Source of the DNA: Nonlabens dokdonensis
GTDB lineage: Bacteria; Bacteroidota; Bacteroidia; Flavobacteriales; Flavobacteriaceae
Assembly: GCF_002162835.1 (NCBI RefSeq)
Contig: NZ_MAAX01000154.1
Span: 10,496 to 74,495, forward strand
Length of the DNA: 64,000 nucleotides
Direction of reading: 5' to 3'
Positions 19,236 to 61,913 of this stretch are shown here, piece after piece; position 1 is the first letter of the stretch, and each line of letters opens with the position of its first letter. Below the pieces are notes generated by a model. The model worked only from the letters and a program-made list of their open reading frames with translations. It had not been told where the DNA came from and made no database searches. A program made the translations under genes and the position numbers.

Positions 19236-19712
19236 ATGAGACTTCTATTTACTGTTATTTGTGTTCTCGCTTTCGCGAAAGCGTACTCACAACAACCTAT
19301 CGCACAAGATTCTACCGTTGTAACTATTAAAAAACCTAGTCCTGTAGATGCGGTGAAGACCTTTTTTAAGAATTTTCACGCACAAGATACAGTGGCGTTA
19401 AAAGAGTCCATTCTAGCAGATATAACACTCACGTCGCTATCAATAAGAGGAGATGAGCGCAGGATAAGCAACACTCAAATAGCTGGATTTTTAAAAGGCA
19501 TTGCGAGTATACCTGATAGTATTCCTTTTGAGGAGCGCCTTATTGAGATAGATTACAGTAATGATACTCAGGTAGCAACGGTTTCTACCACCTATGAATT
19601 TTATTACAATAATAAATTATCGCACATAGGAACAAATAAGTTTACCCTATTTTTTATAGATGATAAATGGGTGATCGTAGGTATTGCAGACACGCGTATT
19701 TATGGGTCGTAA
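19236..19712 (+). CDS. Secreted NTF2-like (DUF4440-type) protein
   Basis: Signal peptide; [30 protein letters not shown]. Confidence 0.8.
19268..19283. repeat. 16-bp palindrome (in signal peptide of the NTF2-like CDS, AFAKA)
   Basis: Exact copy. Confidence 0.97.
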
Positions 19713-20356
19713 TTTAAATTTAAGTTTAAACTTAAGTTGAAGTTGAAGCTGAAGTCTAAGTCTAAGTCTATGCTAAAAATCAAGTTGAAGTTGAAGTTGA
19801 AAATTGCCGTGCAAGCAGATTCAAGGCTTCTTTCCTTAAAATATTCTGTAAAGCGCTTTTATTACTTGCAGCAATGCGCATTGCAAATTCAATTAGTTTC
19901 AACGTAGCACAGATGTGCTCGACATAAATCGTAATTTAAATTTAAGTTTAAACTTAAGTTGAAGTTGAAGCTGAAGTCTAAGTCTAAGTCTATGCTAAAA
20001 ATCAAGTTGAAGTTGAAGTTGAAAATTGCCGTGCAAGCAGACTCAAGGCTTCTTTCCTTAAAATATTCTGTAAAGCGCTTTTATTACTTGCAGCAATACA
20101 CGTTGCAAATTCAATTAGTTTCAACGTAGCACAGATGTGCTCGACATAAATCGTAATTTAAATTTAAGTTTAAATTTAAACCTCAACTTAAGTTAAAGTT
20201 TAAGCTGAAGTCTAAGTCTATGCTAAAAATCAAGTTGAAGTTGAAGTTGAAAATTGCTTTGTAAACAGATTCAAGGCTTCTTTCCTTAAAATATTCTGTA
20301 AAGCGCTTTTATTACTTGCAGCAATGCGCATTGCAAATGCTCAACTAGTTCAACGT
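19707..20356. repeat. Three tandem copies of a ~222-bp unit
   Basis: Units start at 19707, 19929 and 20151; units 1-2 nearly identical, unit 3 diverged; each has hexamer runs (aagttg/aagtct) and a palindrome-rich core. Confidence 0.95.
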
Positions 20357-20558
20357 ATGACTAATAAAGTCAACTTAGTAAGAATTAAAAATGTCTTTAG
20401 AATTCAAAAATTTCAGGAGGAATTTATAATAATATCTAAATAAAGTATTTCCCTTCAGATGAAGGGAAAAAAGTTAAGTAGCTAGCTACTAACGAAAAGG
20501 GTTTGACACGTTGCTAGTTCATGATCTAAGAGCTTAACTACATAACCCTAAAGAATCT

Positions 20559-22334: not shown

Positions 22335-22355
22335 CTATATTATCAATACTATTTT

Positions 22356-23181: not shown

Positions 23182-25200
23182 TTAAACTAATCCGTTATAT
23201 TTTCTTAAAAACCACTCTAGTCCTAATAGTAGTAATATAAGGCCTAAAAGGTATTCCCAGTCTATTAAACTGGTTTGTTTTACAATCGCTCTCTCAATTG
23301 TTTGTAATAATGGGTTCTTCTTAAGATCGGCAATCAATTCTTCTGTTTCACCTTGATAATAGACACTAGAACTACCGACTAACTTTTTCATGCCGGCGTC
23401 ACTCGCACTTACCTGTTGCTTTTCTATATCATATTCTAGTATGCTAAAAGAGCCACTGCGTGATAATTGATCATTTTCTACTTGCACTGTAAATTTATAA
23501 TCGCCCGCTTTGAGACCACTTAAATCCACAACATAAGAATTACCACTCAAAACAAATGGCCTTGTGATCAATTCTTTACTTTCTGTATGAGTCACATTCA
23601 AATTCAAGATACCATTATCTTCAAACTCATAATTCTTGTCTAGGTATTGAGCGTTTATTAGAATGCTTTTATTTTGATAATAGAACGGCTCGTAAGATAA
23701 CTCTAGCCTATTGCGCTTTTTATTACTTGCTAGATATTGCACCTGACTGCTCACTAAATCATCAAAATTTTTAAAATCTTGTTGATCCAGATAGCTTTGA
23801 GCTCTCCATCTCCATAAACCACTTGCTAGCGTTACTGCATGTTTAGTGTCGCCATCTTCATAATTGAACCATATAGGTTGTGTAGTCGTAATGGTACCTA
23901 TTTTCTTATAAAAAAGTACATCAACATTGGTATTAAAAATCAATTCACCGAAAGGTACTTGCACTGGTGGATAATCATCAAAACTTATTTGATCTAGATT
24001 AAAGGTAGTATAAGACGTATTAAGAATGGGCTGTGCTTCATCAAAATCATTACTATCTTCTAAGTTAAAGCTTTGGTACTTGCCATTCAAGTAATCAATA
24101 TCTGGATCGCTACCAGTAATTACCCAAGTATTTTTGTTGAGTTGGCTAATTTGTGCGTACGCTTTCGCGAAAGCGGAACTTACCCCATACATCACGACTA
24201 GATTGTACTCGTTGAGATTATAATCTTCACTAGTACTTTTAATAGTTACTTTGCGCTGCTGGTTAGACTCAATTGCTTTTTTCAAAGCACCGATATCTGG
24301 ATGAACTTGATCAGATAAAATAAGTACATTAGTTTGCTGATCTATTACCTCAACAGCAAAACTTCGGTAATTGTTTTGAGTATTCTTTTCGTTAGGAAGT
24401 GGTTCTATAGAAGCCACCATAGATTGAGTTCCTACAGCGGTACTGGTAAGGTTAAAACTTACGATTGCAGCTCTTTCCTTTTCATTAAAGGAGAGCGTCT
24501 CTGAGTACAAGGTGCGATTACCTTGTGTGACTTTAAATATACGAGACTCTTGTTCCTGACCTTGATAAGCTACAAAAACCTCTACCGGAAACTCATTATT
24601 GAGGTAAGAATACCTGTTAACATTGATGTTAGTAATCTTTAAATCTGCATACTGTGTGGTGTCGCCATAAATTACAGGATACAGACTCGTTTTCTCATTA
24701 ATTTGCGTATAAGAATAACTACTACCTGTGGTTTGATTACCATCTGTAAGGACAACCACCGCTTTATTTCTATTCTTAAATAACTCTTGTGGTTCACTTA
24801 TAGCAATATTTAAATCTGTCTCTGTAGCTTGAAAACTTAAAGAATCAAGCGGCGCTATGGTTTCAGAAAATTTAAATGTCTGGATTTCAAATTTAGAATT
24901 TAAGTCTGAATCGTTAACGATCAATGCCAAATCTCTTTTTACAGCATCACCAGATTTTAAATAGTCAATAGACTTAGAATCATCTACTAGCACTACTAAC
25001 TGCGGCAAAAGCGTTTCATAGGTTTTTGAATCAAACCTAGGGGCAATGAAAAGTAATAGAATAGAAAAAACCGTGAGAAAGCGCAATAACGCAAACCACG
25101 GTTTTTTTCTTGTACTTTTTGAGGTACTGATATAACCATACTGATAAAGAGCTATTAAGGCAGCAATACCTGCAGCTACAATCATCAAAACTACGGTCAT
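23182..25200 (-). CDS. VWA-like domain membrane-anchored protein
   Basis: LVDDSKSI MIDAS-like motif, VVVLTDGNQT, N- and C-terminal TMs (EWFLRKYNGL). Confidence 0.8.
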   Translation of the reverse strand: MTVVLMIVAAGIAALIALYQYGYISTSKSTRKKPWFALLRFLTVFSILLLFIAPRFDSKTYETLLPQLVVLVDDSKSIDYLKSGDAVKRDLALIVNDSDLNSKFEIQTFKFSETIAPLDSLSFQATETDLNIAISEPQELFKNRNKAVVVLTDGNQTTGSSYSYTQINEKTSLYPVIYGDTTQYADLKITNINVNRYSYLNNEFPVEVFVAYQGQEQESRIFKVTQGNRTLYSETLSFNEKERAAIVSFNLTSTAVGTQSMVASIEPLPNEKNTQNNYRSFAVEVIDQQTNVLILSDQVHPDIGALKKAIESNQQRKVTIKSTSEDYNLNEYNLVVMYGVSSAFAKAYAQISQLNKNTWVITGSDPDIDYLNGKYQSFNLEDSNDFDEAQPILNTSYTTFNLDQISFDDYPPVQVPFGELIFNTNVDVLFYKKIGTITTTQPIWFNYEDGDTKHAVTLASGLWRWRAQSYLDQQDFKNFDDLVSSQVQYLASNKKRNRLELSYEPFYYQNKSILINAQYLDKNYEFEDNGILNLNVTHTESKELITRPFVLSGNSYVVDLSGLKAGDYKFTVQVENDQLSRSGSFSILEYDIEKQQVSASDAGMKKLVGSSSVYYQGETEELIADLKKNPLLQTIERAIVKQTSLIDWEYLLGLILLLLGLEWFLRKYNGLV
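24160..24175. repeat. 16-bp palindrome (in VWA-like CDS, AFAKA)
   Basis: Exact copy. Confidence 0.97.
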
Positions 25201-27399: not shown

Positions 27400-28344
27400 T
27401 TAACGTTTATTATTTATATCCTTAATCAATTGCATCATCTCAGGTACTTGCTTGATAGCAGCAATTTCTTTGTATTTACTCCTGAAGTCGTCTGCAGGAA
27501 TACCAAAGTAATGCTTATTACCTTCTAGCGATTTACTAACACCAGACTTTGCAGATATCACAGCTTTCTTACCTATAGTAATCCCACTTGTAATCCCTAC
27601 TTGTCCCCATATGGTCACCTCGTCCTCAATGACTACACAACCGGCAATTCCCGTCTGACTAGCTATCAAGACATGTTTACCAAGTACGGTATCGTGCCCT
27701 ATTTGCACCTGATTATCTAGCTTTGTACCATAGCCTATAGTAGTGTCTCCAGTCACACCACGATCTATAGTACTGTTTGCTCCGATCTCTACTTGATCAT
27801 GAATTACTACCCTACCATTACTCAATAATTTATCATATCCTTCTGGTCTACGTTTGTAATAAAATGCATCTCCACCTAGGACCACTCCAGCATTTATAAT
27901 CACATTATTACCTATAATCGTACGATCGCCTATACTAACATTTGCATGAATTATAGTATGATCTCCTATAACCACATCTTTACCTATACTAGCAGTAGGA
28001 TGAATGTGTGAATTCTTTCCTATGCTTTTAGGAAGTTCCGCTTTCGCGAAAGCGGAAAAAGGATTAAAGTATTGAGTTAATTTATTGAAATCTTTAAAAG
28101 GATCGTCTGAAATGAGTAATGCTTTTCCTTCAGGAGATTCCACCTCTTTATTAATTAAAACAATGGTAGCAGCGCTTGCCAATGCTTTATCATAGTATTT
28201 TGGGTGGTCTACAAACACAATATCACCAGGTGTAACCACATGGATCTCGTTCATTCCCAAAACTGGAAAAGAAGCGTCACCTACATAGTTGCAATCAATG
28301 ATAGATGCTATCTGGGAAAGTGTATGTGCCTTAGGAAACTTCAC
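27400..28344 (-). CDS. LpxD-like hexapeptide acyltransferase (second paralog)
   Basis: Hexapeptide repeats, IDRG, KLDNQVQIGH; GTG start overlapping the efp stop. Confidence 0.88.
   Translation of the reverse strand: MKFPKAHTLSQIASIIDCNYVGDASFPVLGMNEIHVVTPGDIVFVDHPKYYDKALASAATIVLINKEVESPEGKALLISDDPFKDFNKLTQYFNPFSAFAKAELPKSIGKNSHIHPTASIGKDVVIGDHTIIHANVSIGDRTIIGNNVIINAGVVLGGDAFYYKRRPEGYDKLLSNGRVVIHDQVEIGANSTIDRGVTGDTTIGYGTKLDNQVQIGHDTVLGKHVLIASQTGIAGCVVIEDEVTIWGQVGITSGITIGKKAVISAKSGVSKSLEGNKHYFGIPADDFRSKYKEIAAIKQVPEMMQLIKDINNKR
28039..28054. repeat. 16-bp palindrome (in LpxD paralog, AFAKA)
   Basis: Exact copy; extends to 22 bp, TTCC...GGAA. Confidence 0.97.
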
Positions 28345-28910
28345 TATTGCTTCATTCTCTCGTGGTAGTTCCCTTTTTCAGTATCTATACGGATGATATC
28401 ACCTTCATTAATGAATAGTGGTACCATTACCTCAGCACCAGTTTCTACCGTTGCAGGCTTAGTTGCATTTGTTGCCGTATTTCCTTTTACTCCAGGTTCT
28501 GTGGCTGTTACTTCTAGAACTACATATTGAGGCATGTCTACTGATAATGGTGAATCATCTTCTGTATTGATTTGGATTTTTACAATCTCACCTTCTTTAA
28601 GCAATCCAGGTGCATCAAGAACAGACTCTTGCAAACGTATTTGCTCATAAGTCTCTGTGTTCATGAAATGATATCCTTCTGGATCTTGATATAAAAATTG
28701 AAAAGCTTGAGTTTCTACTCTTATATCTTCAATTTTATGTCCTGCAGAAAAGGTGTTATCTATAACTTTACCAGAAGTTACCGATTTTAACTTTGTTCTT
28801 ACAAATGCAGGTCCTTTTCCTGGTTTTACATGTAAAAATTCAATGATTTTGTAAATATCATTATTGTAACGGATGCATAATCCTTTTCTGATGTCGCTTG
28901 TGCTTGCCAT
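28344..28910 (-). CDS. efp: Elongation factor P
   Basis: HVKPGKGPAFVRTKL, KPATVETG, PLFINEGD. Confidence 0.98.
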   Translation of the reverse strand: MASTSDIRKGLCIRYNNDIYKIIEFLHVKPGKGPAFVRTKLKSVTSGKVIDNTFSAGHKIEDIRVETQAFQFLYQDPEGYHFMNTETYEQIRLQESVLDAPGLLKEGEIVKIQINTEDDSPLSVDMPQYVVLEVTATEPGVKGNTATNATKPATVETGAEVMVPLFINEGDIIRIDTEKGNYHERMKQ

Positions 28911-28913
28911 ATT

Positions 28914-29699
28914 CTATTGTTTGCTGATGTATCCTCTCATGATACCTCGCTTTGTGTTTTTAATAAATTCTAATATTTCGTCTCGTTCTGGAGTGGCACT
29001 CATCTCTGCCTCTATAATTTCTACCGCTTGAGAAACATTGTAATTCTTTTGATAAAGGATGCGGTAAATATCTTGTATTTCTCTAATCTTTTCTAATTCA
29101 AAACCTCTTCTACGCAGCCCAACTGAATTGATACCTACATAACTTAAAGGTTCTCTACCAGCTTTTACATAAGGAGGAACGTCCTTACGCACTAATGAGC
29201 CACCAGATACAAATGCGTGACTTCCTACCTGACAAAATTGTTGTACTGCAGCCATTCCTGCCAGTACTACATGATCACCTACGGTAATGTGTCCGGCTAG
29301 TGTGCTGTTATTTGAAAAGATACAATTATCTCCTACTATACAATCATGAGCTATATGACAGTAAGCCATTATCCAGCAATTTTTACCGATAACTGTCTTC
29401 ATCCTGTCTGAAGTACCTCTGTTAATAGTTACACATTCTCTAATAGTAGTATTATCACCTATTATAGTTACCGTGTCTTCATCTTCAAATTTCTTATCTT
29501 GAGGAATAGCGCTTATAACAGCACCAGGAAAAATACTTACGTTTTTACCGATGCGAGCACCTTCCATTATGGTAACGTTAGATCCTATCCATGAGCCTTC
29601 ACCTATTACTACATCATTGTGTATGGTAGTAAATGGTTCAATGACCACATTTTTGGCGATTTTTGCGCCAGGATGTACGTATGCGAGTGGTTGATTCAT
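28914..29699 (-). CDS. lpxA: Acyl-ACP--UDP-N-acetylglucosamine O-acyltransferase
   Basis: Hexapeptide repeats, IRECVTINRGT, HIAHDC, LAGH. Confidence 0.97.
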   Translation of the reverse strand: MNQPLAYVHPGAKIAKNVVIEPFTTIHNDVVIGEGSWIGSNVTIMEGARIGKNVSIFPGAVISAIPQDKKFEDEDTVTIIGDNTTIRECVTINRGTSDRMKTVIGKNCWIMAYCHIAHDCIVGDNCIFSNNSTLAGHITVGDHVVLAGMAAVQQFCQVGSHAFVSGGSLVRKDVPPYVKAGREPLSYVGINSVGLRRRGFELEKIREIQDIYRILYQKNYNVSQAVEIIEAEMSATPERDEILEFIKNTKRGIMRGYISKQ

Positions 29700-31099
29700 T
29701 ACTTTACTTTTGAAATTTGTGCCATTAACTCAGCTTCGGCACAAAGAATACCATTTGCATAAGCATAAGCTTGCATGTGACATATACCTCTTCTTATAGG
29801 CGATATAAGGTCACATTTAAATATAAGTGTGTCTCCTGGAGAAACTTTTCTTTTGAATTTTACATTATCCATTTTCATGAAAAATGTCAAATAATTTTCT
29901 GGATCTGGTACTGTACTTAATACTAAAATACCACCAGTTTGCGCCATTGCCTCTACTATTAAAACTCCGGGCATTACTGGCTGTCCAGGAAAATGTCCTA
30001 CGAAGAATGGCTCATTCATCGTAACATTTTTTAAACCTACCACATGTGAGTCTGACAATTCAAAAATCTTATCGATAAGAAGAAATGGTGGTCTATGTGG
30101 AAGTACGTTCATTATTTGAACAACATCCATTAGAGGCTCTTTGTTGATATCTACTTGAGGTACATTATCTTTTATGTCCTTCTTGATAATCTTTGATAAC
30201 TTCTTTGCAAATTGCGTATTTACAAAGTGTCCCGGTTTAGTCGCAATGACTTTACCTCTTATTCTATAACCTATTAAAGCTAGGTCACCTATAACATCTA
30301 GCAATTTGTGTCGTGCAGCCTCATTAGGGTGATGCAACTCTAGGTTATCTAGTATACCGTTAGGTCTTATAGTAATATTATCTTTATCAAACGCTTTTTT
30401 AAGACTTTCGGTTGTTTTCTCAGACAGCTCTTTATCTACATAGACAATAGCGTTATTTAAATCACCACCTTTAATAAGCCCATGTTCTAATAACATTTCA
30501 ATCTCATGTAAAAAACTAAACGTTCTTGAACTAGAGATTTCATCTTTAAAATTGCTCAGTTTTTCTAGAGTGGCATTTTGAGTACCTAAAACTTTAGTAC
30601 CAAAATCTACCATCGTAGTAATCTGATAGGAATCTGACGGCATCACAATAATCTCACTACCAGTTTCTTCATCTTTATAAGAAATAACTTCCTTAATGAC
30701 ATATTCTTCTCTAAACTGATCTAGCTCTACTTTACCTGCTTTTTCTAATGCTTCTACAAAAAACTTTGATGAACCATCCATAATAGGTGGCTCGCTACTA
30801 TCTATCTCAATCAAGCAGTTATCAATTTCTAAACCTACTAAGGCTGCAAGAACATGCTCACATGTATTTATTTGAACACCTCTTTTATCTAAAGTAGTTC
30901 CTCTTTTAGTATCAGTTACGTAGCTGGCACTTGCCTCAATAATCGGACTTCCTTCTAGATCAACTCTTTGAAAGGCGTATCCATGATTTTCTGGAGCTGG
31001 CTTAAAGACAAGGGTAACTTTATTACCAGTATGCAATCCTACTCCAGATAGGGTTACTTCGTCTTTTATCGTCGTTTGTTTGAATTCTGTTACCGTCAT
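29699..31099 (-). CDS. lpxC: Bifunctional LpxC/FabZ
   Basis: GVGLHTG, EHVLAAL, HKLLDVIGD (LpxC); LPHRPPFLLID, GHFPG.PVMPGV (FabZ). Confidence 0.97.
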   Translation of the reverse strand: MTVTEFKQTTIKDEVTLSGVGLHTGNKVTLVFKPAPENHGYAFQRVDLEGSPIIEASASYVTDTKRGTTLDKRGVQINTCEHVLAALVGLEIDNCLIEIDSSEPPIMDGSSKFFVEALEKAGKVELDQFREEYVIKEVISYKDEETGSEIIVMPSDSYQITTMVDFGTKVLGTQNATLEKLSNFKDEISSSRTFSFLHEIEMLLEHGLIKGGDLNNAIVYVDKELSEKTTESLKKAFDKDNITIRPNGILDNLELHHPNEAARHKLLDVIGDLALIGYRIRGKVIATKPGHFVNTQFAKKLSKIIKKDIKDNVPQVDINKEPLMDVVQIMNVLPHRPPFLLIDKIFELSDSHVVGLKNVTMNEPFFVGHFPGQPVMPGVLIVEAMAQTGGILVLSTVPDPENYLTFFMKMDNVKFKRKVSPGDTLIFKCDLISPIRRGICHMQAYAYANGILCAEAELMAQISKVK

Positions 31100-31100
31100 T

Positions 31101-32120
31101 TCACCTTATTTTTTTCTCAAGATCAGTGATTCTCGATTCAATTTTTCTTAAATTTTTAAATAAAACATAGCTTCTATTCCAGTCTCCAAAATCAAATGCT
31201 GGAGAACCTTGAACTATAGCGCCGCTTTTTAATTTCCTTCCTATCCCACTTTGGGCTTGTATTCCTACGTTATCTTCTATTTCTATGTGCCCAGCGATCC
31301 CTACTTGTCCACCTATTCTACAGTTTTTACCAATTTTTGCAGACCCAGCAATACCAGTCTGTGCTGCTATGACTGTATTCTCTCCTATTTCTACATTATG
31401 AGCTACTTGAATCTGGTTATCTAATTTCACCCCAGATTTAATTATAGTACTACCTAAAGTGGCCTTATCTATAGTAGTAAGTGCACCAATATTTACATTA
31501 TCTTCAATAATTACATTACCGGTTTGTGGAATCTTTGAATAACTACCATCTTCTTTAGGAGCGTATCCAAAACCATCTGCACCTATAACGCTACCAGAGT
31601 TGATAGAAACTTGATTACCTATAACAGTATCTGCCATTATTTGTGCTCCAGATTGAATAATACAATTACTCCCGATGGTAACATTATCACCTATAGTTAC
31701 GTTAGGATATATTTTTACATTATCACCTATGCTTACATTTTCTCCTATGTAACTAAATGCTGCCAAATAAAAGTCTGCACCGTAAGAAGCACTATCATGA
31801 ACAAAAGAAGGTTGCTCAATTCCCGTCTTATTATTTTTGGCCATTTGATAATACTCGAGCAACTTTGAAAAAGCAAGGTAAGCGTCTTCCACTCTTATTA
31901 AGGAACAGTCTACATCTTGATCTAAGGTAAAATCTTTATTTATGATAACAGCACTTGCCTTTGTAGTATACAAGTAAGGTGTGTACTTTGCATTAGATAG
32001 AAAACTCAAACTTCCTGATTCACCTTCTTCTATTTTAGAGAGTTTATCAACTTCAATAGATGGGTCACCTACAATGGTTCCGTCTAAGATGTCTGCAATT
32101 TGTTTAATGGTAAATTTCAT
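31101..32120 (-). CDS. lpxD: UDP-3-O-acylglucosamine N-acyltransferase
   Basis: LSFLSNAKY, GADGFG, KLDNQIQVAHNV, GGQVG. Confidence 0.96.
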   Translation of the reverse strand: MKFTIKQIADILDGTIVGDPSIEVDKLSKIEEGESGSLSFLSNAKYTPYLYTTKASAVIINKDFTLDQDVDCSLIRVEDAYLAFSKLLEYYQMAKNNKTGIEQPSFVHDSASYGADFYLAAFSYIGENVSIGDNVKIYPNVTIGDNVTIGSNCIIQSGAQIMADTVIGNQVSINSGSVIGADGFGYAPKEDGSYSKIPQTGNVIIEDNVNIGALTTIDKATLGSTIIKSGVKLDNQIQVAHNVEIGENTVIAAQTGIAGSAKIGKNCRIGGQVGIAGHIEIEDNVGIQAQSGIGRKLKSGAIVQGSPAFDFGDWNRSYVLFKNLRKIESRITDLEKKIR

Positions 32121-32143: not shown

Positions 32144-33370
32144 TCAATCTTGTAGCTTAGGATAGCAACAGTAATATTTTTTCACTTCTTTGAGCAATGC
32201 TTTGAAGCTATCTTCTTTTCCAGCTTTGATAAGTTCTATCAATTTACCTTTTTTATTAAGTATTTGTATGGGTTTTGCTTTCGCGTAAGCGAGATTAACA
32301 ACATCACCAGAAAAAACAAAATAAGATGCTTCCTGCTCTGTCAATTGATATGATTTCTGGAGTTTTTTCAAGTGTTTATCCACTTTTCTTTGCGGAATAG
32401 GCTTGTCTGAAAATTTAATCTTGAGCAATTGTCTATTTAAAATCATCTTACAAAGCTCGCTTAAGACAAAATCACGATGCGCGCTACCTAGTTTAAGTGT
32501 ATATATAATATCAGAATCGTCTAGGAAAGAAAAGCGTTCTAGATCTTTAGAATCAGCCTCAAAGCTGAAGAAATCTTTATTAAAAAAGTATTTCAAGTTA
32601 TCAGGCAACTTTACTTCTACACCATTATCTAACAGTTCTTTTATACGTTTTATTACGGACTGCAAGAGATGCTCTGCACCTATTCCTGTTTTATGAAGGT
32701 ACACTTGCCAATACATTAAACGACGTCCAGACAAGAAGTTCTCCACGCTATAAAGCCCTTTTTCTTCTACGACTAATTGATCATCTACCACATTGAGCAT
32801 GGTTATTAATCGCTGGCTATTTATGTTACCTTCTGCCACGCCCGTGTAAAAACTGTCTCGTTTCAAGTAATCTAAACGATCCATATCTAACTGGCTAGAA
32901 ATTAATTCTAACATAAACGGACGGTGGTATTCACCTTTGAAAATTTGAATAGCGAGCGTTAAACTACCGTTAAACTTACGATTTAATTCATTCATAAAAT
33001 GACATGAAAGTTGCTCGTGAGTGACGTTTTTAATGATTTGATATTCTAATGCATGAGAAAATGGACCATGCCCTATATCGTGTAGCAGTATAGCCTTATA
33101 AAGCGCGTCTTCTTCATCCTCAGATATTTCAACTAACTTAGATCTAAGTACTTGTACGGCTTTTTGCATTAAATGCATACAGCCTAACGCATGGTGAAAT
33201 CTGGTATGATGAGCACCTGGATAAACTAAGTAGCTTAGACCCATTTGTGTAATCCTACGCAGGCGTTGAAAATAAGGATGTTCTATGATACTAAAAATCT
33301 CTTCTGAAGGAATCGAAATAAAACCGTAGATAGGATCGTTTAATATTTTAAGTTTGTTCTGTTGTTTCAA
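32144..33370 (-). CDS. HD-domain phosphohydrolase (dNTP triphosphohydrolase-like)
   Basis: DPIYG, FQRLRRI.Q, HHTRFHHALG, LHDIGHGPFSH, DRLDYLKRD; TTG start. Confidence 0.92.
   Translation of the reverse strand: MKQQNKLKILNDPIYGFISIPSEEIFSIIEHPYFQRLRRITQMGLSYLVYPGAHHTRFHHALGCMHLMQKAVQVLRSKLVEISEDEEDALYKAILLHDIGHGPFSHALEYQIIKNVTHEQLSCHFMNELNRKFNGSLTLAIQIFKGEYHRPFMLELISSQLDMDRLDYLKRDSFYTGVAEGNINSQRLITMLNVVDDQLVVEEKGLYSVENFLSGRRLMYWQVYLHKTGIGAEHLLQSVIKRIKELLDNGVEVKLPDNLKYFFNKDFFSFEADSKDLERFSFLDDSDIIYTLKLGSAHRDFVLSELCKMILNRQLLKIKFSDKPIPQRKVDKHLKKLQKSYQLTEQEASYFVFSGDVVNLAYAKAKPIQILNKKGKLIELIKAGKEDSFKALLKEVKKYYCCYPKLQD
32276..32291. repeat. 16-bp palindrome variant (in HD gene, AYAKA)
   Basis: TGCTTTCGCGTAAGCG, 2 mismatches. 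Confidence 0.75.
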
Positions 33371-39049: not shown

Positions 39050-39133
39050 ATCACAAATATAATTGCATATATATTTATTTTAATCATATAGACGCTACTT
39101 TTGGGGTTTCATAACAAGATCTATTTTGAATCT

Positions 39134-39149
39134 CGCTTTCGCGAAAGCG
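39134..39149. repeat. 16-bp palindrome (aroB leader)
   Basis: Exact copy. Confidence 0.97.
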
Positions 39150-42426: not shown

Positions 42427-43650
42427 ATGAATAATCAAGATTTATTAAGCATAGCTCGAGAACACGGTAGTCCGGTCTATGTCTATGATGCAAATGTCAT
42501 TGTAGCGCAGTATGAACGTTTAGTTTCCGCTTTCGCGAAAGCGAAAAACCTAAGAATACACTATGCTGTAAAAGCACTGTCTAACATCTCCATCTTGAAA
42601 CTTTTTAAACAGTTAGGCGCTGGACTCGATACCGTGAGTCTACAAGAGGTAGAATTAGGCCTAGCCGCTGGTGTAGATCCTAAAAAAATAATTTTTACAC
42701 CTAATGGAGTATCTCTTGAAGAGATTGAAAAGGTGGCAGAAAAAGGAGTGCAAATAAATATTGATAATCTATCCATCCTAGAACAATTCGGCTCTAAACA
42801 TCCTAGAACGCCAGTTTGTATTAGAATCAATCCTCATGTAATGGCTGGTGGTAATGCAAATATTTCTGTAGGACATATAGATAGTAAATTTGGTATTTCA
42901 ATTCACCAGATACCTCATATTTTAAGAATTGTAGAGAATACAGGTATGACGGTAAACGGTGTGCATATGCATACTGGTAGTGATATCTTAGATATAGGTG
43001 TGTTTTTATATGCTACAGAAATTCTTTTTGAAACTGCGGCTAAGTTTAAAGATCTAGAGTTTATAGACTTCGGTAGTGGATTTAAAGTACCTTATAAAGA
43101 AGGTGATGTTTCTACAGACATAGAAGATCTAGGCGAGCAGCTAAGCGAGCGCTTTAATGCTTTTTGTAAAAGTTATGGTCGTGATATAACTATGGCGTTT
43201 GAACCTGGTAAATTTCTTGTAAGTGAAGCTGGTCATTTTCTAGCACAAGTAAATGTTGTGAAACAAACTACATCTACCGTGTTTGCAGGAGTTGATTCTG
43301 GTTTTAATCATTTAATTAGACCTATGCTCTATGGCTCTTATCATGGGATTAAGAATATTTCAAATCCAGGAGGTAAAAATAGATTTTATAGTGTGGTAGG
43401 ATATATTTGTGAAACAGATACTTTTGCAAACAACCGTCAGATCTCAGAAATTACAGAAGGCGACATACTTTCATTTTCAAATGCTGGTGCCTACTGTTTT
43501 TCTATGGCGAGCAATTATAATTCCCGATATCGTCCTGCAGAGGTGCTATGGTATGATGGAGCGGCTCACCTTATAAGAGAGCGAGAAACTATGAAGGATA
43601 TTTTAAAAGGTCAACATCAACTAAACTTTGAAGAGCTAGTTATTTCTTAA
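42427..43650 (+). CDS. lysA: Diaminopimelate decarboxylase
   Basis: YAVKAL (PLP Lys), SKFGI, HMHTGS, EPGKFLV, GYICETD, SNYNSR. Confidence 0.96.
   Translation: MNNQDLLSIAREHGSPVYVYDANVIVAQYERLVSAFAKAKNLRIHYAVKALSNISILKLFKQLGAGLDTVSLQEVELGLAAGVDPKKIIFTPNGVSLEEIEKVAEKGVQINIDNLSILEQFGSKHPRTPVCIRINPHVMAGGNANISVGHIDSKFGISIHQIPHILRIVENTGMTVNGVHMHTGSDILDIGVFLYATEILFETAAKFKDLEFIDFGSGFKVPYKEGDVSTDIEDLGEQLSERFNAFCKSYGRDITMAFEPGKFLVSEAGHFLAQVNVVKQTTSTVFAGVDSGFNHLIRPMLYGSYHGIKNISNPGGKNRFYSVVGYICETDTFANNRQISEITEGDILSFSNAGAYCFSMASNYNSRYRPAEVLWYDGAAHLIRERETMKDILKGQHQLNFEELVIS
42528..42543. repeat. 16-bp palindrome (in lysA, AFAKA)
   Basis: Exact copy. Confidence 0.97.
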
Positions 43651-44718: not shown

Positions 44719-44734
44719 CGCTTTCGCGAAAGCG
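44719..44734. repeat. 16-bp palindrome (intergenic)
   Basis: Exact copy. Confidence 0.97.
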
Positions 44735-49969: not shown

Positions 49970-51199
49970 TCAATCAACATTCTTTTCTTCAATCCACTTG
50001 CTCAGATATTTATTAGCTTTTTGGGAATGATAAACAAGCATTTGTATACTAAACGAGCCTTCTAATGTGGTGTTATTTTTGTAGGAAAAAAGCAACTGCA
50101 CTCTTCCTAATAAAGCTTTCGCGAAAGCGGAATACGAATAAAACTCCTCCCATATTACCAAATTTTTACCGCTTAGAGCACACCAGTCATTCTCGTTATT
50201 ATAAACCTCTAAACATTTAGAAGCAAAAGCTTCAGGATTATCTTCTACAAATCCATAAGTATCTGATTTGTTAAACATACCTTCTGCTGCAATAGACGTC
50301 ATGGCTACAGGTGTATTTGCTTTCATGGCATCAAATATTTTTCCTTTTTGACCAGCACCAAAGCGCAACGGAGCTAATAGCAAGCGGTATTTACTTATAG
50401 TTTCTACTGCATCAACTGCATAACCTTTAATGATAAAGCCCAATTGAATGTCATTTAATTGATATATCGCTTGATTTTGGTATGCTCCATATACATGAAC
50501 TTCTACATTTGGGTTGTTTTTTCTAATTTTTGGCCATATAAAGTTTCTCATATAAAATATAGCATCGTAATTAGGCTTGTGCAAAGAATTGCCTATCATG
50601 ACCATATGTGACCTTTCTGAAAAAGTCGTGGCCTTTTCTCTGGCCGCCAGTATTTCTTTTTGATCGATTAAAAAAGGAATGTAAAATACCTTAGAGGCAT
50701 CCATGTCAAATGCGTCCAGTAATAATTGGTATTCTGTCAATGAAATAATCAAGGATAAATCGCATCTATGAATCGCGGCTATCTCGCGCATTGCTACCTC
50801 TGTATACAAATTTATTTTGTTATTTTTCTTAAATGCTTCTTCTCTAGCCTTCCTTAGAAAGTGTAAATCTTCTGTATCGAGTATATGTTTTGTGTGCGGA
50901 GCATTTTCTTTAACACGCCAGCTGTACTGCTCTTCCATCATAAATCGATCATACAGTACGACATCTGGTTGTAACTTTTGAATATAAGTGTCAAAAGAAG
51001 AGTTATTCAATTTTATTTCTTGTTCTGTAATATTTAATCCGGTTAAGTCTACCGAATAATCAGATTTTGCTGCGGCACTTGCAAAATGGACCTCATAACC
51101 ATCACTTTGAAAAATTTTCAATAATTGTAATAATCTAGTTCCAGCAGCGGTTGTGGTAGGTTCTGGCCAGTTATTTCCTATTACTAACAGTCGTTTCAT
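49970..51199 (-). CDS. Glycosyltransferase (GT-B, family 4-like)
   Basis: WPEP..TAAG, LDTEDLHFLR, HKPNYDA, APLRFGAGQKGK. Confidence 0.85.
   Translation of the reverse strand: MKRLLVIGNNWPEPTTTAAGTRLLQLLKIFQSDGYEVHFASAAAKSDYSVDLTGLNITEQEIKLNNSSFDTYIQKLQPDVVLYDRFMMEEQYSWRVKENAPHTKHILDTEDLHFLRKAREEAFKKNNKINLYTEVAMREIAAIHRCDLSLIISLTEYQLLLDAFDMDASKVFYIPFLIDQKEILAAREKATTFSERSHMVMIGNSLHKPNYDAIFYMRNFIWPKIRKNNPNVEVHVYGAYQNQAIYQLNDIQLGFIIKGYAVDAVETISKYRLLLAPLRFGAGQKGKIFDAMKANTPVAMTSIAAEGMFNKSDTYGFVEDNPEAFASKCLEVYNNENDWCALSGKNLVIWEEFYSYSAFAKALLGRVQLLFSYKNNTTLEGSFSIQMLVYHSQKANKYLSKWIEEKNVD
50114..50129. repeat. 16-bp palindrome variant (in glycosyltransferase, AFAKA)
   Basis: AGCTTTCGCGAAAGCG, 1 mismatch. 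Confidence 0.9.
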
Positions 51200-51464: not shown

Positions 51465-52229
51465 ATGGGTAAAATAGTTGCAATAGCAAATCAAAAAGGT
51501 GGTGTAGGAAAAACAACAACAGCCGTTAATCTAGCGGCTTGTCTAGGTGTTTTAGAGAAAAAAGTATTGTTAATAGATGCTGATCCACAAGCAAATGCAA
51601 CTTCAGGTTTAGGGATAGATGTAGAGGCAATATCTCAAGGTACATATCAATTAGTTGAAAATTCTGTAGACCCTAGTGAGCTTATTTTATCCACAGACTC
51701 TCCTAACGTTGATATTATCCCAGCACATATAGATCTTGTTGCGATCGAGATTGAACTGGTTGATAAAGATCAACGCGAGTATATGATGAAGGAAGCCTTA
51801 AAAGAAATTAAAAAGAACTACGATTATATCATTATAGATTGTGCACCATCGTTAGGTTTACTAACTCTTAACGCGCTTACAGCTAGTAATTCTGTACTCA
51901 TTCCTATACAGTGTGAATACTTTGCATTAGAAGGTTTAGGAAAACTCTTAAACACAATTAAAAGTGTTCAAAAAATACATAATACAGAACTTGATATAGA
52001 AGGACTATTATTAACCATGTATGATAGTAGGTTGCGATTATCAAATCAAGTTGTAGAAGAAGTAAATCAACATTTTGAAGGGTTAACATTTAAGACAATC
52101 ATTCAAAGAAATGTACGTTTAAGTGAAGCACCTTCATATGGAGAAAGCATTATTAACTATGATGCATCTAGTAAAGGCTCAGAAAATTACTTGAGTCTAG
52201 CAAATGAACTTATACAGAAAAACGCTTAA
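51465..52229 (+). CDS. parA: Chromosome partitioning ATPase
   Basis: NQKGGVGKTTT, DADPQANAT, IIDCAPSLG, EYFALEG. Confidence 0.97.
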   Translation: MGKIVAIANQKGGVGKTTTAVNLAACLGVLEKKVLLIDADPQANATSGLGIDVEAISQGTYQLVENSVDPSELILSTDSPNVDIIPAHIDLVAIEIELVDKDQREYMMKEALKEIKKNYDYIIIDCAPSLGLLTLNALTASNSVLIPIQCEYFALEGLGKLLNTIKSVQKIHNTELDIEGLLLTMYDSRLRLSNQVVEEVNQHFEGLTFKTIIQRNVRLSEAPSYGESIINYDASSKGSENYLSLANELIQKNA

Positions 52230-52234
52230 GCACT

Positions 52235-53131
52235 ATGGCCAAGGCAACTAAGAAACAAGCGCTGGGAAGAGGACTATCTGCTCTATTAAAAGACCCTAGC
52301 AACGACATAAAATCGGCAGAGGATAAAAATGCCGATCAAATAGTAGGAAACGTGATCGATCTTCCTTTAAAGGATATAGACATGAATCCTTTTCAACCTA
52401 GAACCAGCTTTAATGAAGAGCACTTGCGTGAACTTGCCAGCTCAATAAGTGAACTAGGTGTGATACAGCCTATCACAGTGCGCAAAAAAGGATTTGGAAA
52501 ATATGAGCTGGTTTCTGGTGAACGTAGATGTCGTGCTTCAAAATTGCTCGGTATAGAAACCATTCCTGCATATGTGCGTATTGCAAACGATCAAGAATCT
52601 TTAGAAATGGCACTGGTAGAAAATATCCAGCGTCAAGATCTAGACCCTATTGAAATTGCACTTTCCTATCAGAGGTTAATTGAAGAAATAGACCTTACAC
52701 AAGAGCAAATGAGCGATCGTGTAGGTAAATCTCGTAGTGCTATTGCAAATTATTTAAGGCTTTTGAAATTGGATCCTATCATACAGACTGGTATGAGAGA
52801 TGGATTTATTTCTATGGGCCATGGTCGTGCTTTAATTAATTTAGAAAGTTTAGAGCAACAATTAGATGTATATCAAAAAATTCTTGCCGACAGCCTTTCT
52901 GTAAGAGAAACAGAGAAATTAGTTAAGGATTTAAAAGGAGGCACGCTTTCGCGAAAGCAAACTAAAAAGAACTCATTGCCAGAAAATGTGGCTGAGAAAA
53001 CAAGCCATTTGAATTCATTTCTGGACACCAAAGTTACTACTACGATGTCCAGCTCTGGAAAGGGAAAAATTACTATCAATTATGCCTCAAAAGCAGACTT
53101 TGAACGCATAGTAAAATTGATTAATGAATAA
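52235..53131 (+). CDS. parB: Chromosome partitioning protein
   Basis: LGRGLSAL, NPFQPR, GERRCRA, LVENIQRQDL, HTH GKSRSAIANYLRL. Confidence 0.97.
   Translation: MAKATKKQALGRGLSALLKDPSNDIKSAEDKNADQIVGNVIDLPLKDIDMNPFQPRTSFNEEHLRELASSISELGVIQPITVRKKGFGKYELVSGERRCRASKLLGIETIPAYVRIANDQESLEMALVENIQRQDLDPIEIALSYQRLIEEIDLTQEQMSDRVGKSRSAIANYLRLLKLDPIIQTGMRDGFISMGHGRALINLESLEQQLDVYQKILADSLSVRETEKLVKDLKGGTLSRKQTKKNSLPENVAEKTSHLNSFLDTKVTTTMSSSGKGKITINYASKADFERIVKLINE
52944..52959. repeat. 16-bp palindrome variant (in parB, LSRK frame)
   Basis: CGCTTTCGCGAAAGCA, 1 mismatch. Confidence 0.9.
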
Positions 53132-56725: not shown

Positions 56726-57574
56726 ATGAACAACAACTTTGCGCGTTTTAAAGCATTTTATAAAACAGCAAGTTTGTGGTCTGGCTCTCTTTTAGGATTA
56801 CAACAGTTTCCTCTTAAAGAATTTGATTTTTCCTACCTTAATGAAGAAGAGGCATTAGAGTTACCTGCTATACCTCAAGGAACTGTATTAGGCAAAAGAG
56901 CTGAGTACTTTTTTAAATTTTGCATAGAAAAGTGTCAAAATTATGATCTAGTTCTTTCTAACGCTCAAATTTTTAATAAAAAAGTTACCATAGGAGAATT
57001 AGATTATATAGTACAAGAAACTACAACTGGCCAATTAGTTCATATTGAACTGGTCTATAAATTTTATATTTATAATCCAGATTTTCAATCTAGTGAGAAA
57101 GATGATCGTTTAATTGAATTAAGTAAATACAGAGGTCCTAACGGGAGAGATAACTTAATTAGAAAAATCAACCACCTTAAAAACCATCAACTTCCATTAC
57201 TTTATCATACAGAAACTGAGGCGCTTTTAAACTCTCATTCTATATCCATTGAAAACATAAAGCAGCAAGTATGTTTTCTAGCTCATGTATTTATCCCTCA
57301 TAAATTTTGGAATTTTAAATTCAAATACATCAATAAAGCATGTATTGTAGGTTATTATTTTAATATATCCGCTTTCGCGAAAGCGGAAACACAAAACACC
57401 TATTACCTACCAGAAAAATTTGCATGGAAAATGTCTCCTTACCCTACTGCCCTTGAACACACCTTTCAGGAAGTACTTGAAAGCGCTACACAAAGCTTGG
57501 AGCGAGGTTTTGCGCCGTTAGTATGGATGCAACTGGAAACAGGCAAATTCGAAAGATTTTTTATTGTTAAGTAA
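56726..57574 (+). CDS. DUF1853 family protein (PD-(D/E)XK-like)
   Basis: LGKRAEYFF, IGELDYI, HIELVYKFY, GPN.RD.L. Confidence 0.85.
   Translation: MNNNFARFKAFYKTASLWSGSLLGLQQFPLKEFDFSYLNEEEALELPAIPQGTVLGKRAEYFFKFCIEKCQNYDLVLSNAQIFNKKVTIGELDYIVQETTTGQLVHIELVYKFYIYNPDFQSSEKDDRLIELSKYRGPNGRDNLIRKINHLKNHQLPLLYHTETEALLNSHSISIENIKQQVCFLAHVFIPHKFWNFKFKYINKACIVGYYFNISAFAKAETQNTYYLPEKFAWKMSPYPTALEHTFQEVLESATQSLERGFAPLVWMQLETGKFERFFIVK
57370..57385. repeat. 16-bp palindrome (in DUF1853, AFAKA)
   Basis: Exact copy; extends to 20 bp. Confidence 0.97.
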
Positions 57575-57835: not shown

Positions 57836-57838
57836 AGA

Positions 57839-59496: not shown

Positions 59497-60024
59497 ATGG
59501 AAAAAACCAAACGAATTTTAATAATAGGTGGTCCTGGATCTGGAAAAACGAGCGTTTTACAAACGATTGAAAAGAACAATTTTAAGGTACATCACGAGAT
59601 TTCAAGAGAAGTGACTGCAAATGCTCAGAAGAGTGGCATAGAGCAACTTTTCCTTACTGATCCGTTTGCTTTCAGTAACCAGTTGCTCGATGGTAGAATA
59701 CAGCAATTTAAAAACGCTGCTTCAGGGATTAATTTTTATGATCGAGGCATTCCAGATGTACCTGCTTATCATGTTTTTACAGGAGATAAAATACCAGAAG
59801 TGTTTATGAAAGCCTGTAAAGAATATAGGTATGATCAAGTCTTTTTCTTACCACCGTGGGAAGAAATATATGAAAGTGATAATGAACGCTATGAAACTTA
59901 TGATCAAGCTGTAGTTTTAGGTGATATTTTATTAGATTTTTATAAAAAGTTAGACTACTCTCCTATCTCTGTACCTAAATCTTCTATTGAGAACCGCTAT
60001 AATTTTATCATAGAACAACTATAA
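59497..60024 (+). CDS. AAA_28/NadR-like small ATPase
   Basis: GGPGSGKTS, FYDRGIPD, FFLPPWEEIY. Confidence 0.88.
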   Translation: MEKTKRILIIGGPGSGKTSVLQTIEKNNFKVHHEISREVTANAQKSGIEQLFLTDPFAFSNQLLDGRIQQFKNAASGINFYDRGIPDVPAYHVFTGDKIPEVFMKACKEYRYDQVFFLPPWEEIYESDNERYETYDQAVVLGDILLDFYKKLDYSPISVPKSSIENRYNFIIEQL

Positions 60025-60026
60025 TA

Positions 60027-61913
60027 TTGATTGAAAAATCCTTACATATTCTCAAAAATAGATTTGGCTATGAGTCTTTTAGACCTCTTCAACAAGAAAT
60101 AATTTCTACGGTTTTAGAAGGTAAAGATTCCTTAGCACTGCTACCTACCGGTGGTGGAAAATCCATTTGTTATCAAATACCAGGTATACAATTAGATGGA
60201 ATATGTATTGTTATTTCACCCTTAGTGGCTCTGATTAAGGATCAAGTAGATCAATTGAAAAAAAAAGGTGTCAAAGCAAGCGGTATTACCGGTGGTATTT
60301 CCTATAGAGATCTAGATGACATCCTTGATAATTGTGTTTTTGGCAATTATGATTTTTTATATTTAAGTCCAGAAAGATTAAAGCAAGATTTAGTACAAGA
60401 ACGCATTCTTAAAATGAATGTTAACCTTATTGCAGTAGATGAAGCGCATTGCATTAGTGAATGGGGACATGACTTTAGACCAGCCTATCGAGAAATTAAT
60501 ATTCTTAGAGAGTTGCACCCACAAATTCCTGTGATCGCAGTTACAGCAACGGCTACAAAAGAAGTGCAGCAAGATATCATCTCCGTACTAGCACTTAAAA
60601 ATCCACAGGTGTTTAAATCCAGTTATGAAAGAGCTAATATTCATTACCATATCCTGAACACCGCAGATAAACGTCAGGCCCTTAAAAAATTCTATGCGCA
60701 ACATTCAGGTTCCAGCATAAGTTATGTACGTAGTAGAAAAAACGCAGTAGAATACAGTCTTTTACTACAGCAACAAGGTATAACTTCTGCATTTTATCAT
60801 GGAGGCCTTACTAACAAATTGAGATCTACCACGTCTGACGCATGGTTACATAATAAAACACAAGTTATTGTTGCGACAAATGCCTTTGGTATGGGAATAG
60901 ATAAACCAGATGTGCGCACTATAGTTCATTTACAGCTTCCTGATAGTATAGAAAGTTTTTATCAAGAGACCGGTAGAGCTGGTAGAGATGGTAAATTAAG
61001 CACGGCTCAGTTCATATATAATCGCAACGATATACAGCATGCTTATAATCAATTTGTAAAATCACAACCTACTGCAGCTTTTTTAAAATTCATTTATCGT
61101 AAGTTATCTAACTATTTAAGAATAGCGTTAGGAGAAGGTGAAGGAGATTCATTCCCATTATCATTCTCTCAATTTTGTAAAGCATATGATCTTAATGGGA
61201 TGCAGGCATACAGTGCCTTAAACGCCTTAGATCGCTTTAGTGTGATACAGCTCGCCCAAGGATTTCATAGACGGTGTAGTATCCGCTTTCGCGAAAGCGG
61301 AACACAAATAATTAACTTTGCACAACATAGACCTGAAGTTAACGCTATCATTCAATCCATTTTGCGAACTTACGGCAGCAGTAAAAACCAAACACTTCAA
61401 ATCAATCCATCACTTATTGCGACGAGAAGTAACACCAGCGAGGAGCTCGTTTTTGAAACTATCGATTTACTTCAAAGTCGTGAACTGATAGATGCTAGTA
61501 TTGTTCATACAGATTTGCAAGTAACTTATTTAATACCTAGAGACGATGATCGCACCATTAACTCCTTTTCTAAAGAACTAGAACGACAAAATCGCATACG
61601 TCTAGAAAAATTAAAATCTATTATACAACTGGTAACGGAAACAGATAAATGTATTAATAGGATGATATTAGAGTATTTCAATGAAGAGAACGTTTCAAAT
61701 TGTAATCATTGCAGCAATTGTTTAAAGTCAAGACACGAGACAGTAACAAGTTCTACCTTATTGAGATCAATAAAAGAAAAGCCGTTAAATATTCAAGAGA
61801 TTATAAGTGTTACAGGTGCTTCACAAGAGTCGGTAATTGTAGAAATTAAAAGACTATTAGAACAACAATTAATTATCCTGACAGATAATAATAAATACAT
61901 AGTAAATGAATAA
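60027..61913 (+). CDS. recQ: RecQ family ATP-dependent DNA helicase
   Basis: LPTGGGKS, DEAHCISEWGHDFRP, ATNAFGMGIDK, QETGRAGRDG, Zn-site C...CNHCSNC. Confidence 0.96.
   Translation: MIEKSLHILKNRFGYESFRPLQQEIISTVLEGKDSLALLPTGGGKSICYQIPGIQLDGICIVISPLVALIKDQVDQLKKKGVKASGITGGISYRDLDDILDNCVFGNYDFLYLSPERLKQDLVQERILKMNVNLIAVDEAHCISEWGHDFRPAYREINILRELHPQIPVIAVTATATKEVQQDIISVLALKNPQVFKSSYERANIHYHILNTADKRQALKKFYAQHSGSSISYVRSRKNAVEYSLLLQQQGITSAFYHGGLTNKLRSTTSDAWLHNKTQVIVATNAFGMGIDKPDVRTIVHLQLPDSIESFYQETGRAGRDGKLSTAQFIYNRNDIQHAYNQFVKSQPTAAFLKFIYRKLSNYLRIALGEGEGDSFPLSFSQFCKAYDLNGMQAYSALNALDRFSVIQLAQGFHRRCSIRFRESGTQIINFAQHRPEVNAIIQSILRTYGSSKNQTLQINPSLIATRSNTSEELVFETIDLLQSRELIDASIVHTDLQVTYLIPRDDDRTINSFSKELERQNRIRLEKLKSIIQLVTETDKCINRMILEYFNEENVSNCNHCSNCLKSRHETVTSSTLLRSIKEKPLNIQEIISVTGASQESVIVEIKRLLEQQLIILTDNNKYIVNE
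61284..61299. repeat. 16-bp palindrome (in recQ, RFRES frame)
   Basis: Exact copy; extends to 20 bp. Confidence 0.97.

Follow-up and report, generated by a model that had tools for sequence, protein, structure and literature searches.

A 14-bp palindrome iterated through Nonlabens chromosomes and maintained at the DNA level: a possible self signal for DNA uptake or recombination

The window analysed here is a stretch of 64,000 nucleotides (64 kb) from Nonlabens dokdonensis (contig NZ_MAAX01000154.1, positions 10,496 to 74,495). Its genes and spacers carry many copies of one short word, GCTTTCGCGAAAGC, a perfect palindrome of 14 bp. There are 13 exact copies and two copies with one mismatch (18276 and 32277), and the chance expectation obtained from dinucleotide-preserving shuffles of the window is 0.01, with a maximum of 1. 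The word is the only palindromic 10-mer or 12-mer repeated within the window, and all 14 occurrences of TTCGCGAA lie within it. The bases adjacent to the core are mostly C at -1 and mostly G at +1, extending the palindrome to 16 bp. As described below, it is a highly iterated palindrome that is made by substitution, held at the DNA level, symmetric as a whole word, evenly spaced and present in few lineages.

The initial annotation placed nine of the 15 copies within coding regions. Translation of the open reading frames (ORFs) agrees with this and adds a possible tenth at 1342. The peptides encoded by these copies are AFAKA or AYAKA (seven), RFRES (two) and LSRK (one), in the frames claimed earlier. 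On the plus strand, exact copies encode AFAKA in the signal-peptide-like N-terminus of a 158-aa protein (19269..19282), in LysA nine residues ahead of the RIHYAVKA motif (42529..42542) and in a DUF1853 protein (57371..57384). On the minus strand, the same peptide is encoded by exact copies in a 672-aa protein with the database name VWA (24161..24174), in an LpxD paralogue, where it falls into the linker between the N-terminal domain and the hexapeptide repeats (28040..28053), and in the C-terminal region of a group-1 glycosyltransferase (50115..50128). The AYAKA variant is encoded on the minus strand in an HD-domain protein by a one-mismatch copy, GCTTACGCGAAAGC on the gene strand (32277..32290). 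Two further exact copies on the plus strand encode LSRK in the ParB linker between the helix-turn-helix and dimerisation domains (52945..52958) and RFRES in a variable region of a RecQ-family helicase (61285..61298). The ambiguous exact copy (1342..1355) corresponds to codons 5-9, RFRES, of the ORF 1329-1598 encoding a Hva1_TUDOR protein. It would be in the 5' leader if the internal methionine codon is the true start; the N. marinus gene call includes the copy, and the exact 14-mer is found there at the same place. Most of the protein names given initially are backed by Pfam (LpxD/Hexapep, HD, the diaminopimelate (DAP)-decarboxylase fold, Glyco_trans_1_4, ParB, DUF1853, RecQ). However, "NTF2-like" and "VWA" have no Pfam match, the latter coming from database names alone.

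All three frames of the word are free of stop codons on both strands, as it is a palindrome. To this extent it is coding-neutral, as had been suggested; however, the frames are used unequally, and the word alters and then freezes the amino acids that it encodes.

The remaining copies are in spacers. Exact copies were found between the hydrolase and carbonic anhydrase genes (4108..4121), 16 nt past the stop codon of the EPSP (5-enolpyruvylshikimate-3-phosphate) synthase gene (7979..7992), in the divergent spacer between the proline dehydrogenase gene and aroB, downstream of a conserved TAnnTTTG box (39135..39148), and 44 nt beyond the DUF808 stop codon in a convergent spacer (44720..44733). The spacer between convergent genes at 18276..18289 contains a one-mismatch copy, TCTTTCGCGAAAGC. 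The copy at 4108 is lineage-specific, as N. ulvanivorans and N. marinus lack it in their orthologous spacers. In contrast, the spacers corresponding to the one at 7979 in the same two species also carry a copy, which is the sole conserved block there. The sole long gap between copies, from 7979 to 18276, includes a copy-free stretch (9800..17200) with the lowest G+C content in the window (0.31), where the ORFs mostly belong to no known family. This stretch, with about a dozen small ORFs including a GIY-YIG and DUF4357 protein, an EcsC-like protein and a bacterial PH-domain protein, is probably accessory DNA.

Just upstream of the copy at 39135 there is a block TAGAnnGnTACTTTTGA (39080-39135), which is kept in seven species. 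Its sequence agrees with the -7 promoter box of Bacteroidota, TAnnTTTG, and the palindrome would then be located near the start of the aroB transcript.

The word is constrained at the level of DNA. Codon-level alignments of the window genes with 16 Nonlabens loci provide 35 site-by-species comparisons. The exact 14-mer is kept in 23 of them, whereas the proportion of 14-mers perfectly conserved in these gene pairs predicts 1.34. Third positions of codons with an unchanged amino acid are identical in 127 of 133 cases (95.5%) inside the word and in 24169 of 44377 cases (54.5%) outside it. All 20 AFAKA peptides in the Nonlabens loci are encoded by the exact word, including its rare codons TTC (20% of phenylalanine codons) and GCG (12% of alanine codons). 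Thus the same residues with unrelated codons, which the initial annotation had named as the sign of chance, are not observed. AFAKA-like peptides occur six times in 381,000 residues from other genera, where four of the six use GCYTTTGCAAAAGC. Compared with these genera, the Nonlabens ORFs are enriched in AFAKA approximately 13-fold, in FRES approximately 12-fold and in LSRK approximately 3-fold. Synonymous-site conservation and proteome peptide counts had been proposed as checks, and both turned out in favour of the initial annotation.

Single copies behave in the same way. The glycosyltransferase copy is retained despite only 57-64% identity of the proteins. The copy in the 158-aa protein is exact in N. 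dokdonensis and N. spongiae (43% identity to the latter's protein), the one in the 672-aa protein is matched exactly in two species and with a single mismatch in N. dokdonensis, and the variant in the HD-domain gene is identical in five species (the window and four others). Seven species retain the spacer copy at 39135, in surroundings that are 56% identical and full of indels. Where the LysA copy has been lost, the sequences differ at three to four of 14 positions, synonymous ones included. The rare codons and the peptides AFAKA, RFRES and LSRK are frozen while the surroundings diverge.

The initial annotation suggested that the word arises by substitution and not by insertion. None of the ten coding sites shows a length change relative to orthologues, outgroup genera being available for LysA, RecQ and the 672-aa protein; therefore the word was made by substitution. 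Thus this suggestion held at every testable coding site, and the clean insertions that would have spoken for a longer element were looked for and not found. The spacers at 4108 and 7979 are too diverged for indels to be scored. Among approximately 120 LysA homologues there is no change of length at the site, which reads SAF[A/S/D/Q]KA in Nonlabens and AFxK[V/A] in other genera; LysA of the window is 97% identical to that of N. dokdonensis, and its close homologues are all from Nonlabens. The 672-aa protein has AFAKA in most Nonlabens and SFASVF or NFARAY, of equal length, in other genera. The ParB and glycosyltransferase sites have no indels in within-genus alignments, and neither do those of the second LpxD, HD, DUF1853, 158-aa and TUDOR proteins.

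At the RecQ site, other genera have LQFEVSS, VLFKVSN and similar segments of equal length. FRES is retained in nearly all of approximately 60 Nonlabens sequences (53-100% identity), preceded usually by R and sometimes by S, and its flanks vary freely. The 14-mer is exact in all four genomes checked, and the protein is only 82% identical to RecQ of N. dokdonensis, which points to a related species known from marine metagenomes. Thus substitution over a similar native segment, as initially proposed, describes LysA but not RecQ, where three of the five residues were overwritten. Coding copies in general fall into poorly conserved stretches of otherwise conserved proteins. When compared with solved structures, the LpxD and LysA sites correspond to segments whose length varies, and each can be aligned without gaps to at least one structure.

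The RecQ helicase (60027-61913) has approximately 190 residues between Helicase_C, ending at 322, and the zinc-binding domain, starting at 516. This layout is common to homologues of 620-636 aa across Flavobacteriaceae genera. A location of the RecQ copy in an inserted domain was considered and rejected, as the region of approximately 190 aa is common to the whole family across genera.

Beyond the window, 17 Nonlabens loci (385 kb) contain 76 copies with at most one mismatch, each species having 0.13-0.27 per kb. ORFs account for 51 copies and spacers for 25, the loci being 85.5% coding, and the frames are used in the ratio 33:11:7. A scan of metagenomes with the 16-mer yielded 102 low-GC loci (666 kb, 88% coding) with 187 distinct copies, 116 in ORFs and 71 in spacers, and frames used as 62:28:26. 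Thus 62-67% of copies are in ORFs, and spacers are 3-4.5 times denser in copies than genes. With duplicate sites kept, the metagenome sample comprises 168 exact copies, 18 copies with one mismatch and 21 with two; the 32 copies with three mismatches are at about the level of chance by estimate. Frame 0 uses the codons GCG and TTC, frame 1 CGC, and frame 2 TCG and CGA, which make up 4.7% and 10% of their codon families. Frame use tracks codon rarity, and the frame with the fewest rare codons, encoding AFAKA, is preferred.

The copies are distributed more evenly than expected. For the intervals within the window the coefficient of variation amounts to 0.52, with a single interval shorter than 2 kb (P = 0.004-0.006 under random placement). 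A censoring-aware hazard analysis, giving the rate of meeting the next copy, was performed on two data sets. The hazard in the genome loci is 0-0.03 per kb over the first 2 kb and 0.18-0.61 per kb beyond; in the metagenome loci it is 0.03-0.10 per kb over the first 1.5 kb and 0.21-0.48 beyond 2 kb. Hence copies repel each other within approximately 1.5 kb. The density in spacers is 0.63 per kb in tandem, 0.68 in convergent and 1.05 in divergent ones.

The unit is the whole symmetric word, as neither its half-site nor its inner words are in excess. The half-site GCGAAAGC occurs twice outside the palindromes, against 1.8 expected from a Markov model, and outside the 14-mer TCGCGA and CGCG are observed 22 and 284 times, against 28.5 and 384 expected. 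The lack of excess or avoidance of these inner words also led us to reject a restriction-modification footprint. The pooled flanks, read outward, have G at +1 in 84-89% of copies and A at +3, +4, +7, +10 and +13 in 52-72%, and are almost devoid of G from +4 to +12. This two-fold symmetric signature is present also in the spacer copies and in the independent sample. The base at +2 depends on the lineage: the flank begins with GGA in the group of the window, GAA in N. marinus and GTA in the ulvanivorans group. Position 5/10 looked like the single tolerant position in the genome loci; this was rejected, since the metagenome sample repeats it only in part, the outermost position being the most variable there.

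In other genera of Flavobacteriaceae, 69 of 72 loci contain no copy. The exceptions are a metagenome-assembled genome (MAG) labelled Dokdonia (L080), with three copies in 13.8 kb, and two loci with single in-frame AFAKA copies. Additionally, locus L298 from another genus, whose RecQ is 45% identical to that of the window and reads INFKVND at the RFRES site, has three exact copies in 13.7 kb at sites other than those of Nonlabens. Hence the word accumulates independently in several lineages, with build-up at other sites in at least two flavobacterial lineages besides Nonlabens (L080 and L298). L298 also contains two-mismatch variants altered at the same end (1548, 8395 and 12822; GCTTTCGCGAAATT twice and GCTTTCGCGAAAAT once), which may represent a lineage-specific variant. 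A family-wide habit of genus-specific palindromes was rejected, as no locus from another genus repeats a 10- or 12-mer palindrome of its own.

The lytic Nonlabens phages P12024S and P12024L (approximately 35 kb each) have no copy at up to two mismatches, about seven being expected at host density (P about 8e-4). Matches in IMG/VR are mostly single and chance-like, with a few low-GC contigs carrying two or three copies, one of them prophage-like. The latter (IMGVR_UViG_2617271332_000001), encoding a depolymerase, an S49 protease and an amidase, has three exact copies in 11 kb, a host-like density unlike that of the lytic Nonlabens phages. Several metagenome contigs align with the window until just past a copy (39155, 44738, 57388) and continue with unrelated sequence. 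Probably they match merely the shared word and its flank.

The reading preferred here is that the word is a self tag for DNA uptake or recombination, of the same kind as the uptake signal sequence (USS) of Pasteurellaceae, the DNA uptake sequence (DUS) of Neisseriaceae and the highly iterated palindrome HIP1 of cyanobacteria. We assign to this reading, which the sequence patterns suggest, a probability of about 0.4. The duplex word would be read by a two-fold symmetric, probably dimeric, sequence-specific protein and would serve as a signal of chromosomal "self", with the benefit saturating at one site per few kb. Alleles bearing the word would be favoured in uptake or homologous replacement; in this way it would spread and be restored at tolerant positions, and a second copy near a first would bring no gain. 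The traits shared with uptake sequences are the fraction of copies in ORFs, the enrichment in spacers, the frame preference, the location in tolerant segments and the absence from the family-less low-GC block. USS and DUS show preferences for frame and position, enrich their peptides and do not occur in genes that lack homologues (PMC2817400); their spacing is related to a length scale (PMC2397512). Riemerella columbina, from a related family, is reported to be naturally competent and to prefer its own DNA (PMC7965970). HIP1, for which a part in transformation has recently been proposed, reportedly raises the transformation efficiency of cyanobacteria (bioRxiv 10.1101/2024.09.10.611283, 10.64898/2026.06.24.733823).

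On the other hand, several points weigh against the self-tag reading. Any dimeric DNA-binding protein, whatever its role, could use a perfect palindrome of 14-16 bp, and a nucleoid-organising site would account just as well for the even spacing, the conservation of positions and the lack of copies in phages. In addition, classical uptake sequences lack symmetry, measure 9-12 bp and occur about four times more densely than this word. The gene calls are simple longest-ORF calls, and genome-wide figures, including the overall frequency of approximately one copy per 4-5 kb of Nonlabens chromosome, are extrapolated from samples of about 20 kb. Finally, the species comparisons are not phylogenetically independent, though the effect is very large.

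The rival that survives best, which we consider nearly as likely as the self tag though itself somewhat improbable, is that the word is the site of a nucleoid-organising or chromosome-partitioning protein, such as a ParB- or Noc-like clamp, a condensin loader or another dimeric nucleoid protein, and that roughly 800-900 even high-affinity sites would anchor or structure the chromosome, each being kept by selection. The perfectly symmetric core with symmetric A-rich flanks spans about 40 bp, the size of a protein footprint, and the half-sites alone are not enriched. Even spacing with short-range repulsion, conserved positions and the lack of copies in lytic phages are all in agreement with such a role. 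The arms TTTC..GAAA resemble those of parS and of the Noc-binding site. Moreover, no canonical parS is present around parAB: nothing within three mismatches of TGTTTCACGTGAAACA was found in the 64-kb window, although it contains both parA and parB (51465-53131). The nucleoid reading was also adopted for HIP1 by Xu et al. (PMC5861425). However, nucleoid sites are usually degenerate, whereas approximately 90% of the copies with at most one mismatch are perfect, and only its age would explain why accessory DNA is depleted of copies. The analysis yielded no candidate protein. The arms are separated by 2 bp and not by 4 bp as in the parS and Noc sites, and thus the word is neither of them. Given this spacing, 2 bp shorter, and a density of approximately 0.2 per kb at every locus, the parS/Noc consensus (TGTTTCACGTGAAACA or ATTTCCCGGGAAAT) was rejected as the identity of the word.

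It is unlikely that the word has no function for the cell and results from a selfish or neutral conversion, in which biased mismatch repair, templated repair after a nicking enzyme or a similar sequence-specific process changes near-matches to the perfect word and mends mutated copies. This would account for the origin of copies by substitution where partial matches exist, for the vast excess of perfect over one-mismatch copies and, if the writing enzyme is transferable, for the independent build-up in several lineages. On the other hand, it predicts neither even spacing nor short-range repulsion. The variant in the HD-domain gene has stayed unchanged in five species and has not been "repaired", several lineages have lost the LysA copy altogether (three to four mismatches), and lytic phages replicating in the host have neither a copy nor a near-match. 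To our knowledge, no repair system reads 14 bp.

Still less probable is that the word acts as a single-stranded RNA or DNA hairpin, that is, a terminator, a processing or stability element, or a priming or nuclease-resistant mini-hairpin. The word with its flanks can fold into a stem of 6-8 bp with a CGCG loop, and the hairpin is identical from either strand, as the word is a palindrome. The half-site GCGAAAGC, present on each strand, is an unusually stable DNA mini-hairpin, and 28 of 37 copies in tandem spacers are closer to the upstream stop codon. However, folding predictions give -2 to -10 kcal/mol, a modest stability that frequently does not exceed that of shuffled sequences. It is the sequence and not the pairing that is conserved, as compensatory changes are not seen, and the window has no Rfam match at gathering thresholds. 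The half-site is not enriched outside the palindrome, and the mini-hairpin as the unit was rejected on this ground. An intrinsic terminator was rejected as well: the 3' flank is A-rich without a T-run, divergent spacers are at least as dense in copies as convergent ones, and two thirds of the copies are inside ORFs.

That the copies are a miniature mobile element inserting into genes and spacers, of the same type as miniature inverted-repeat transposable elements (MITEs), repetitive extragenic palindromic (REP) elements or Rickettsia palindromic elements, is very improbable. In its favour, the copies are numerous, nearly identical and partly conserved in their flanks, and spacer copies cannot be scored for indels because of the divergence of the spacers. 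However, none of the ten coding sites changes in length even against outgroup genera, an insertion would shift the frame, since 14 is not a multiple of three, target duplications are absent, and the flank signature is found also at coding copies plainly made by substitution. For coding copies the sequences largely refute this explanation.

Finally, chance, or selection acting on the encoded peptides instead of the DNA, to which one might ascribe the AFAKA-like peptides of other genera and the resemblance of AFA|KA to a signal-peptidase site in one protein, is already refuted by the frozen synonymous positions and the spacer data, as well as being at odds with the shuffles, the non-coding third of the copies, the enrichment of three unrelated peptides and the invariable use of the rare codons TTC and GCG.

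Several other features of the window were observed. A unit of 222 bp, composed of runs of AAGTTG and AAGTCT hexamers, forms 2.9 tandem repeats with 93% matches (19707-20357) between the gene of the 158-aa protein and the next gene. Two LpxD paralogues (27400-28344, 31101-32120) flank the lpxC-fabZ fusion, lpxA and efp, and the order of this lpx cluster (27400-32120) is conserved in five Nonlabens genomes. The genes at 1-9 kb of the window (TUDOR, Sua5, hydrolase, carbonic anhydrase, EPSP synthase; 1-9300 compared with loci L208 and L209) directly adjoin the DUF4290-RecQ block in N. ulvanivorans and N. marinus. In the window the two are 50 kb apart, which indicates a rearrangement. Proteins with tails of the type IX secretion system (T9SS) are encoded as well, which fits Bacteroidota.

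Hyper-abundant genomic words, such as USS, DUS, HIP1 and Chi, are rare, and the function of HIP1 has been debated for 30 years. In the library searched, we found no paper with the 14-mer, or with the 10-mer in this context, and nothing relevant linking Nonlabens or Flavobacteria to palindromes, highly iterated or not. Apparently, the word is neither HIP1 nor a classical USS and has not been described before. Tentatively, and with some doubt, it may represent an undescribed system shared by several lineages of marine Flavobacteriaceae (Nonlabens, the Dokdonia-labelled MAG and the L298-type genus with 45% RecQ identity), with a recognition word of 14-16 bp written by substitution at one copy per 2-5 kb. 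If so, it would be a counterpart of HIP1 and USS in Bacteroidota, and possibly the first palindromic uptake or self signal outside cyanobacteria. It also provides a sharp taxonomic signature for binning, and alignments of short assembly contigs end at it. More generally, DNA signals can override protein evolution, which calls for caution when function is inferred from conservation: FRES is the most conserved peptide of a variable part of Nonlabens RecQ because of the DNA word and not because of the protein.

Among the systems compared, Rickettsia palindromic elements, REP elements, bacterial interspersed mosaic elements (BIMEs) and MITEs are similar in being short scattered palindromic repeats, and those of Rickettsia occur in ORFs too. 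However, they are imperfect, 20-150 bp long, insert and add residues, whereas the 14-bp word is perfect and its coding copies add no residues, in line with the difference from the Rickettsia elements stated in the initial annotation. The parS/Noc sites, matS and SlmA sites are likewise palindromes of 12-16 bp bound by dimers, some of them in genes. These, however, number tens and are placed by macrodomain, compared with hundreds of copies at similar density in all sampled regions here.

The sequence patterns of the word also resemble those of USS and DUS. Those words are specific to a genus or family and present in hundreds to thousands of copies; they arise by substitution at tolerant positions, show frame bias and spacer enrichment, are missing from genes without homologues, leave enriched peptides in the proteome (PMC2817400) and have spacing tied to a length scale (PMC2397512). 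The Nonlabens word has the same mode of accumulation, is absent from lytic phages and is spaced more evenly than at random, and its lineage-dependent flanks (GGAA, GAAC, GTAA) recall DUS dialects. However, it is palindromic, longer and approximately four times sparser, and its spacer copies are single palindromes not associated with terminators. The initial annotation described the accumulation as that of uptake sequences. The pattern does match them (PMC2817400), yet it matches HIP1 equally (PMC5861425).

HIP1 (GCGATCGC) is likewise a perfect palindrome, hugely over-represented, and present in genes, in all three frames, as well as in spacers. Its positions and codons are conserved across genomes above controls, from which Xu et al. 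inferred selection (PMC5861425). Its distribution along the chromosome is non-random, and its function is debated between nucleoid structure and transformation or uptake. The word described here shares the over-representation, the presence in coding and non-coding regions and the conservation of sites and codons. On the other hand, it has 14-16 bp instead of eight, is unrelated in sequence, 4-10 times sparser, and occurs in one genus and few further lineages of Bacteroidota instead of a phylum, Cyanobacteria. HIP1 has cognate orphan methyltransferases, none being known for this word, and shows periodicity at 10-90 kb, compared with repulsion over 1-2 kb here. As the sequence and the phylum differ, the word is an analogue of HIP1 and not HIP1 proper. 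Being independent, longer, sharply defined and found in culturable marine flavobacteria, it offers a second system in which uptake and nucleoid structure can be weighed against each other.

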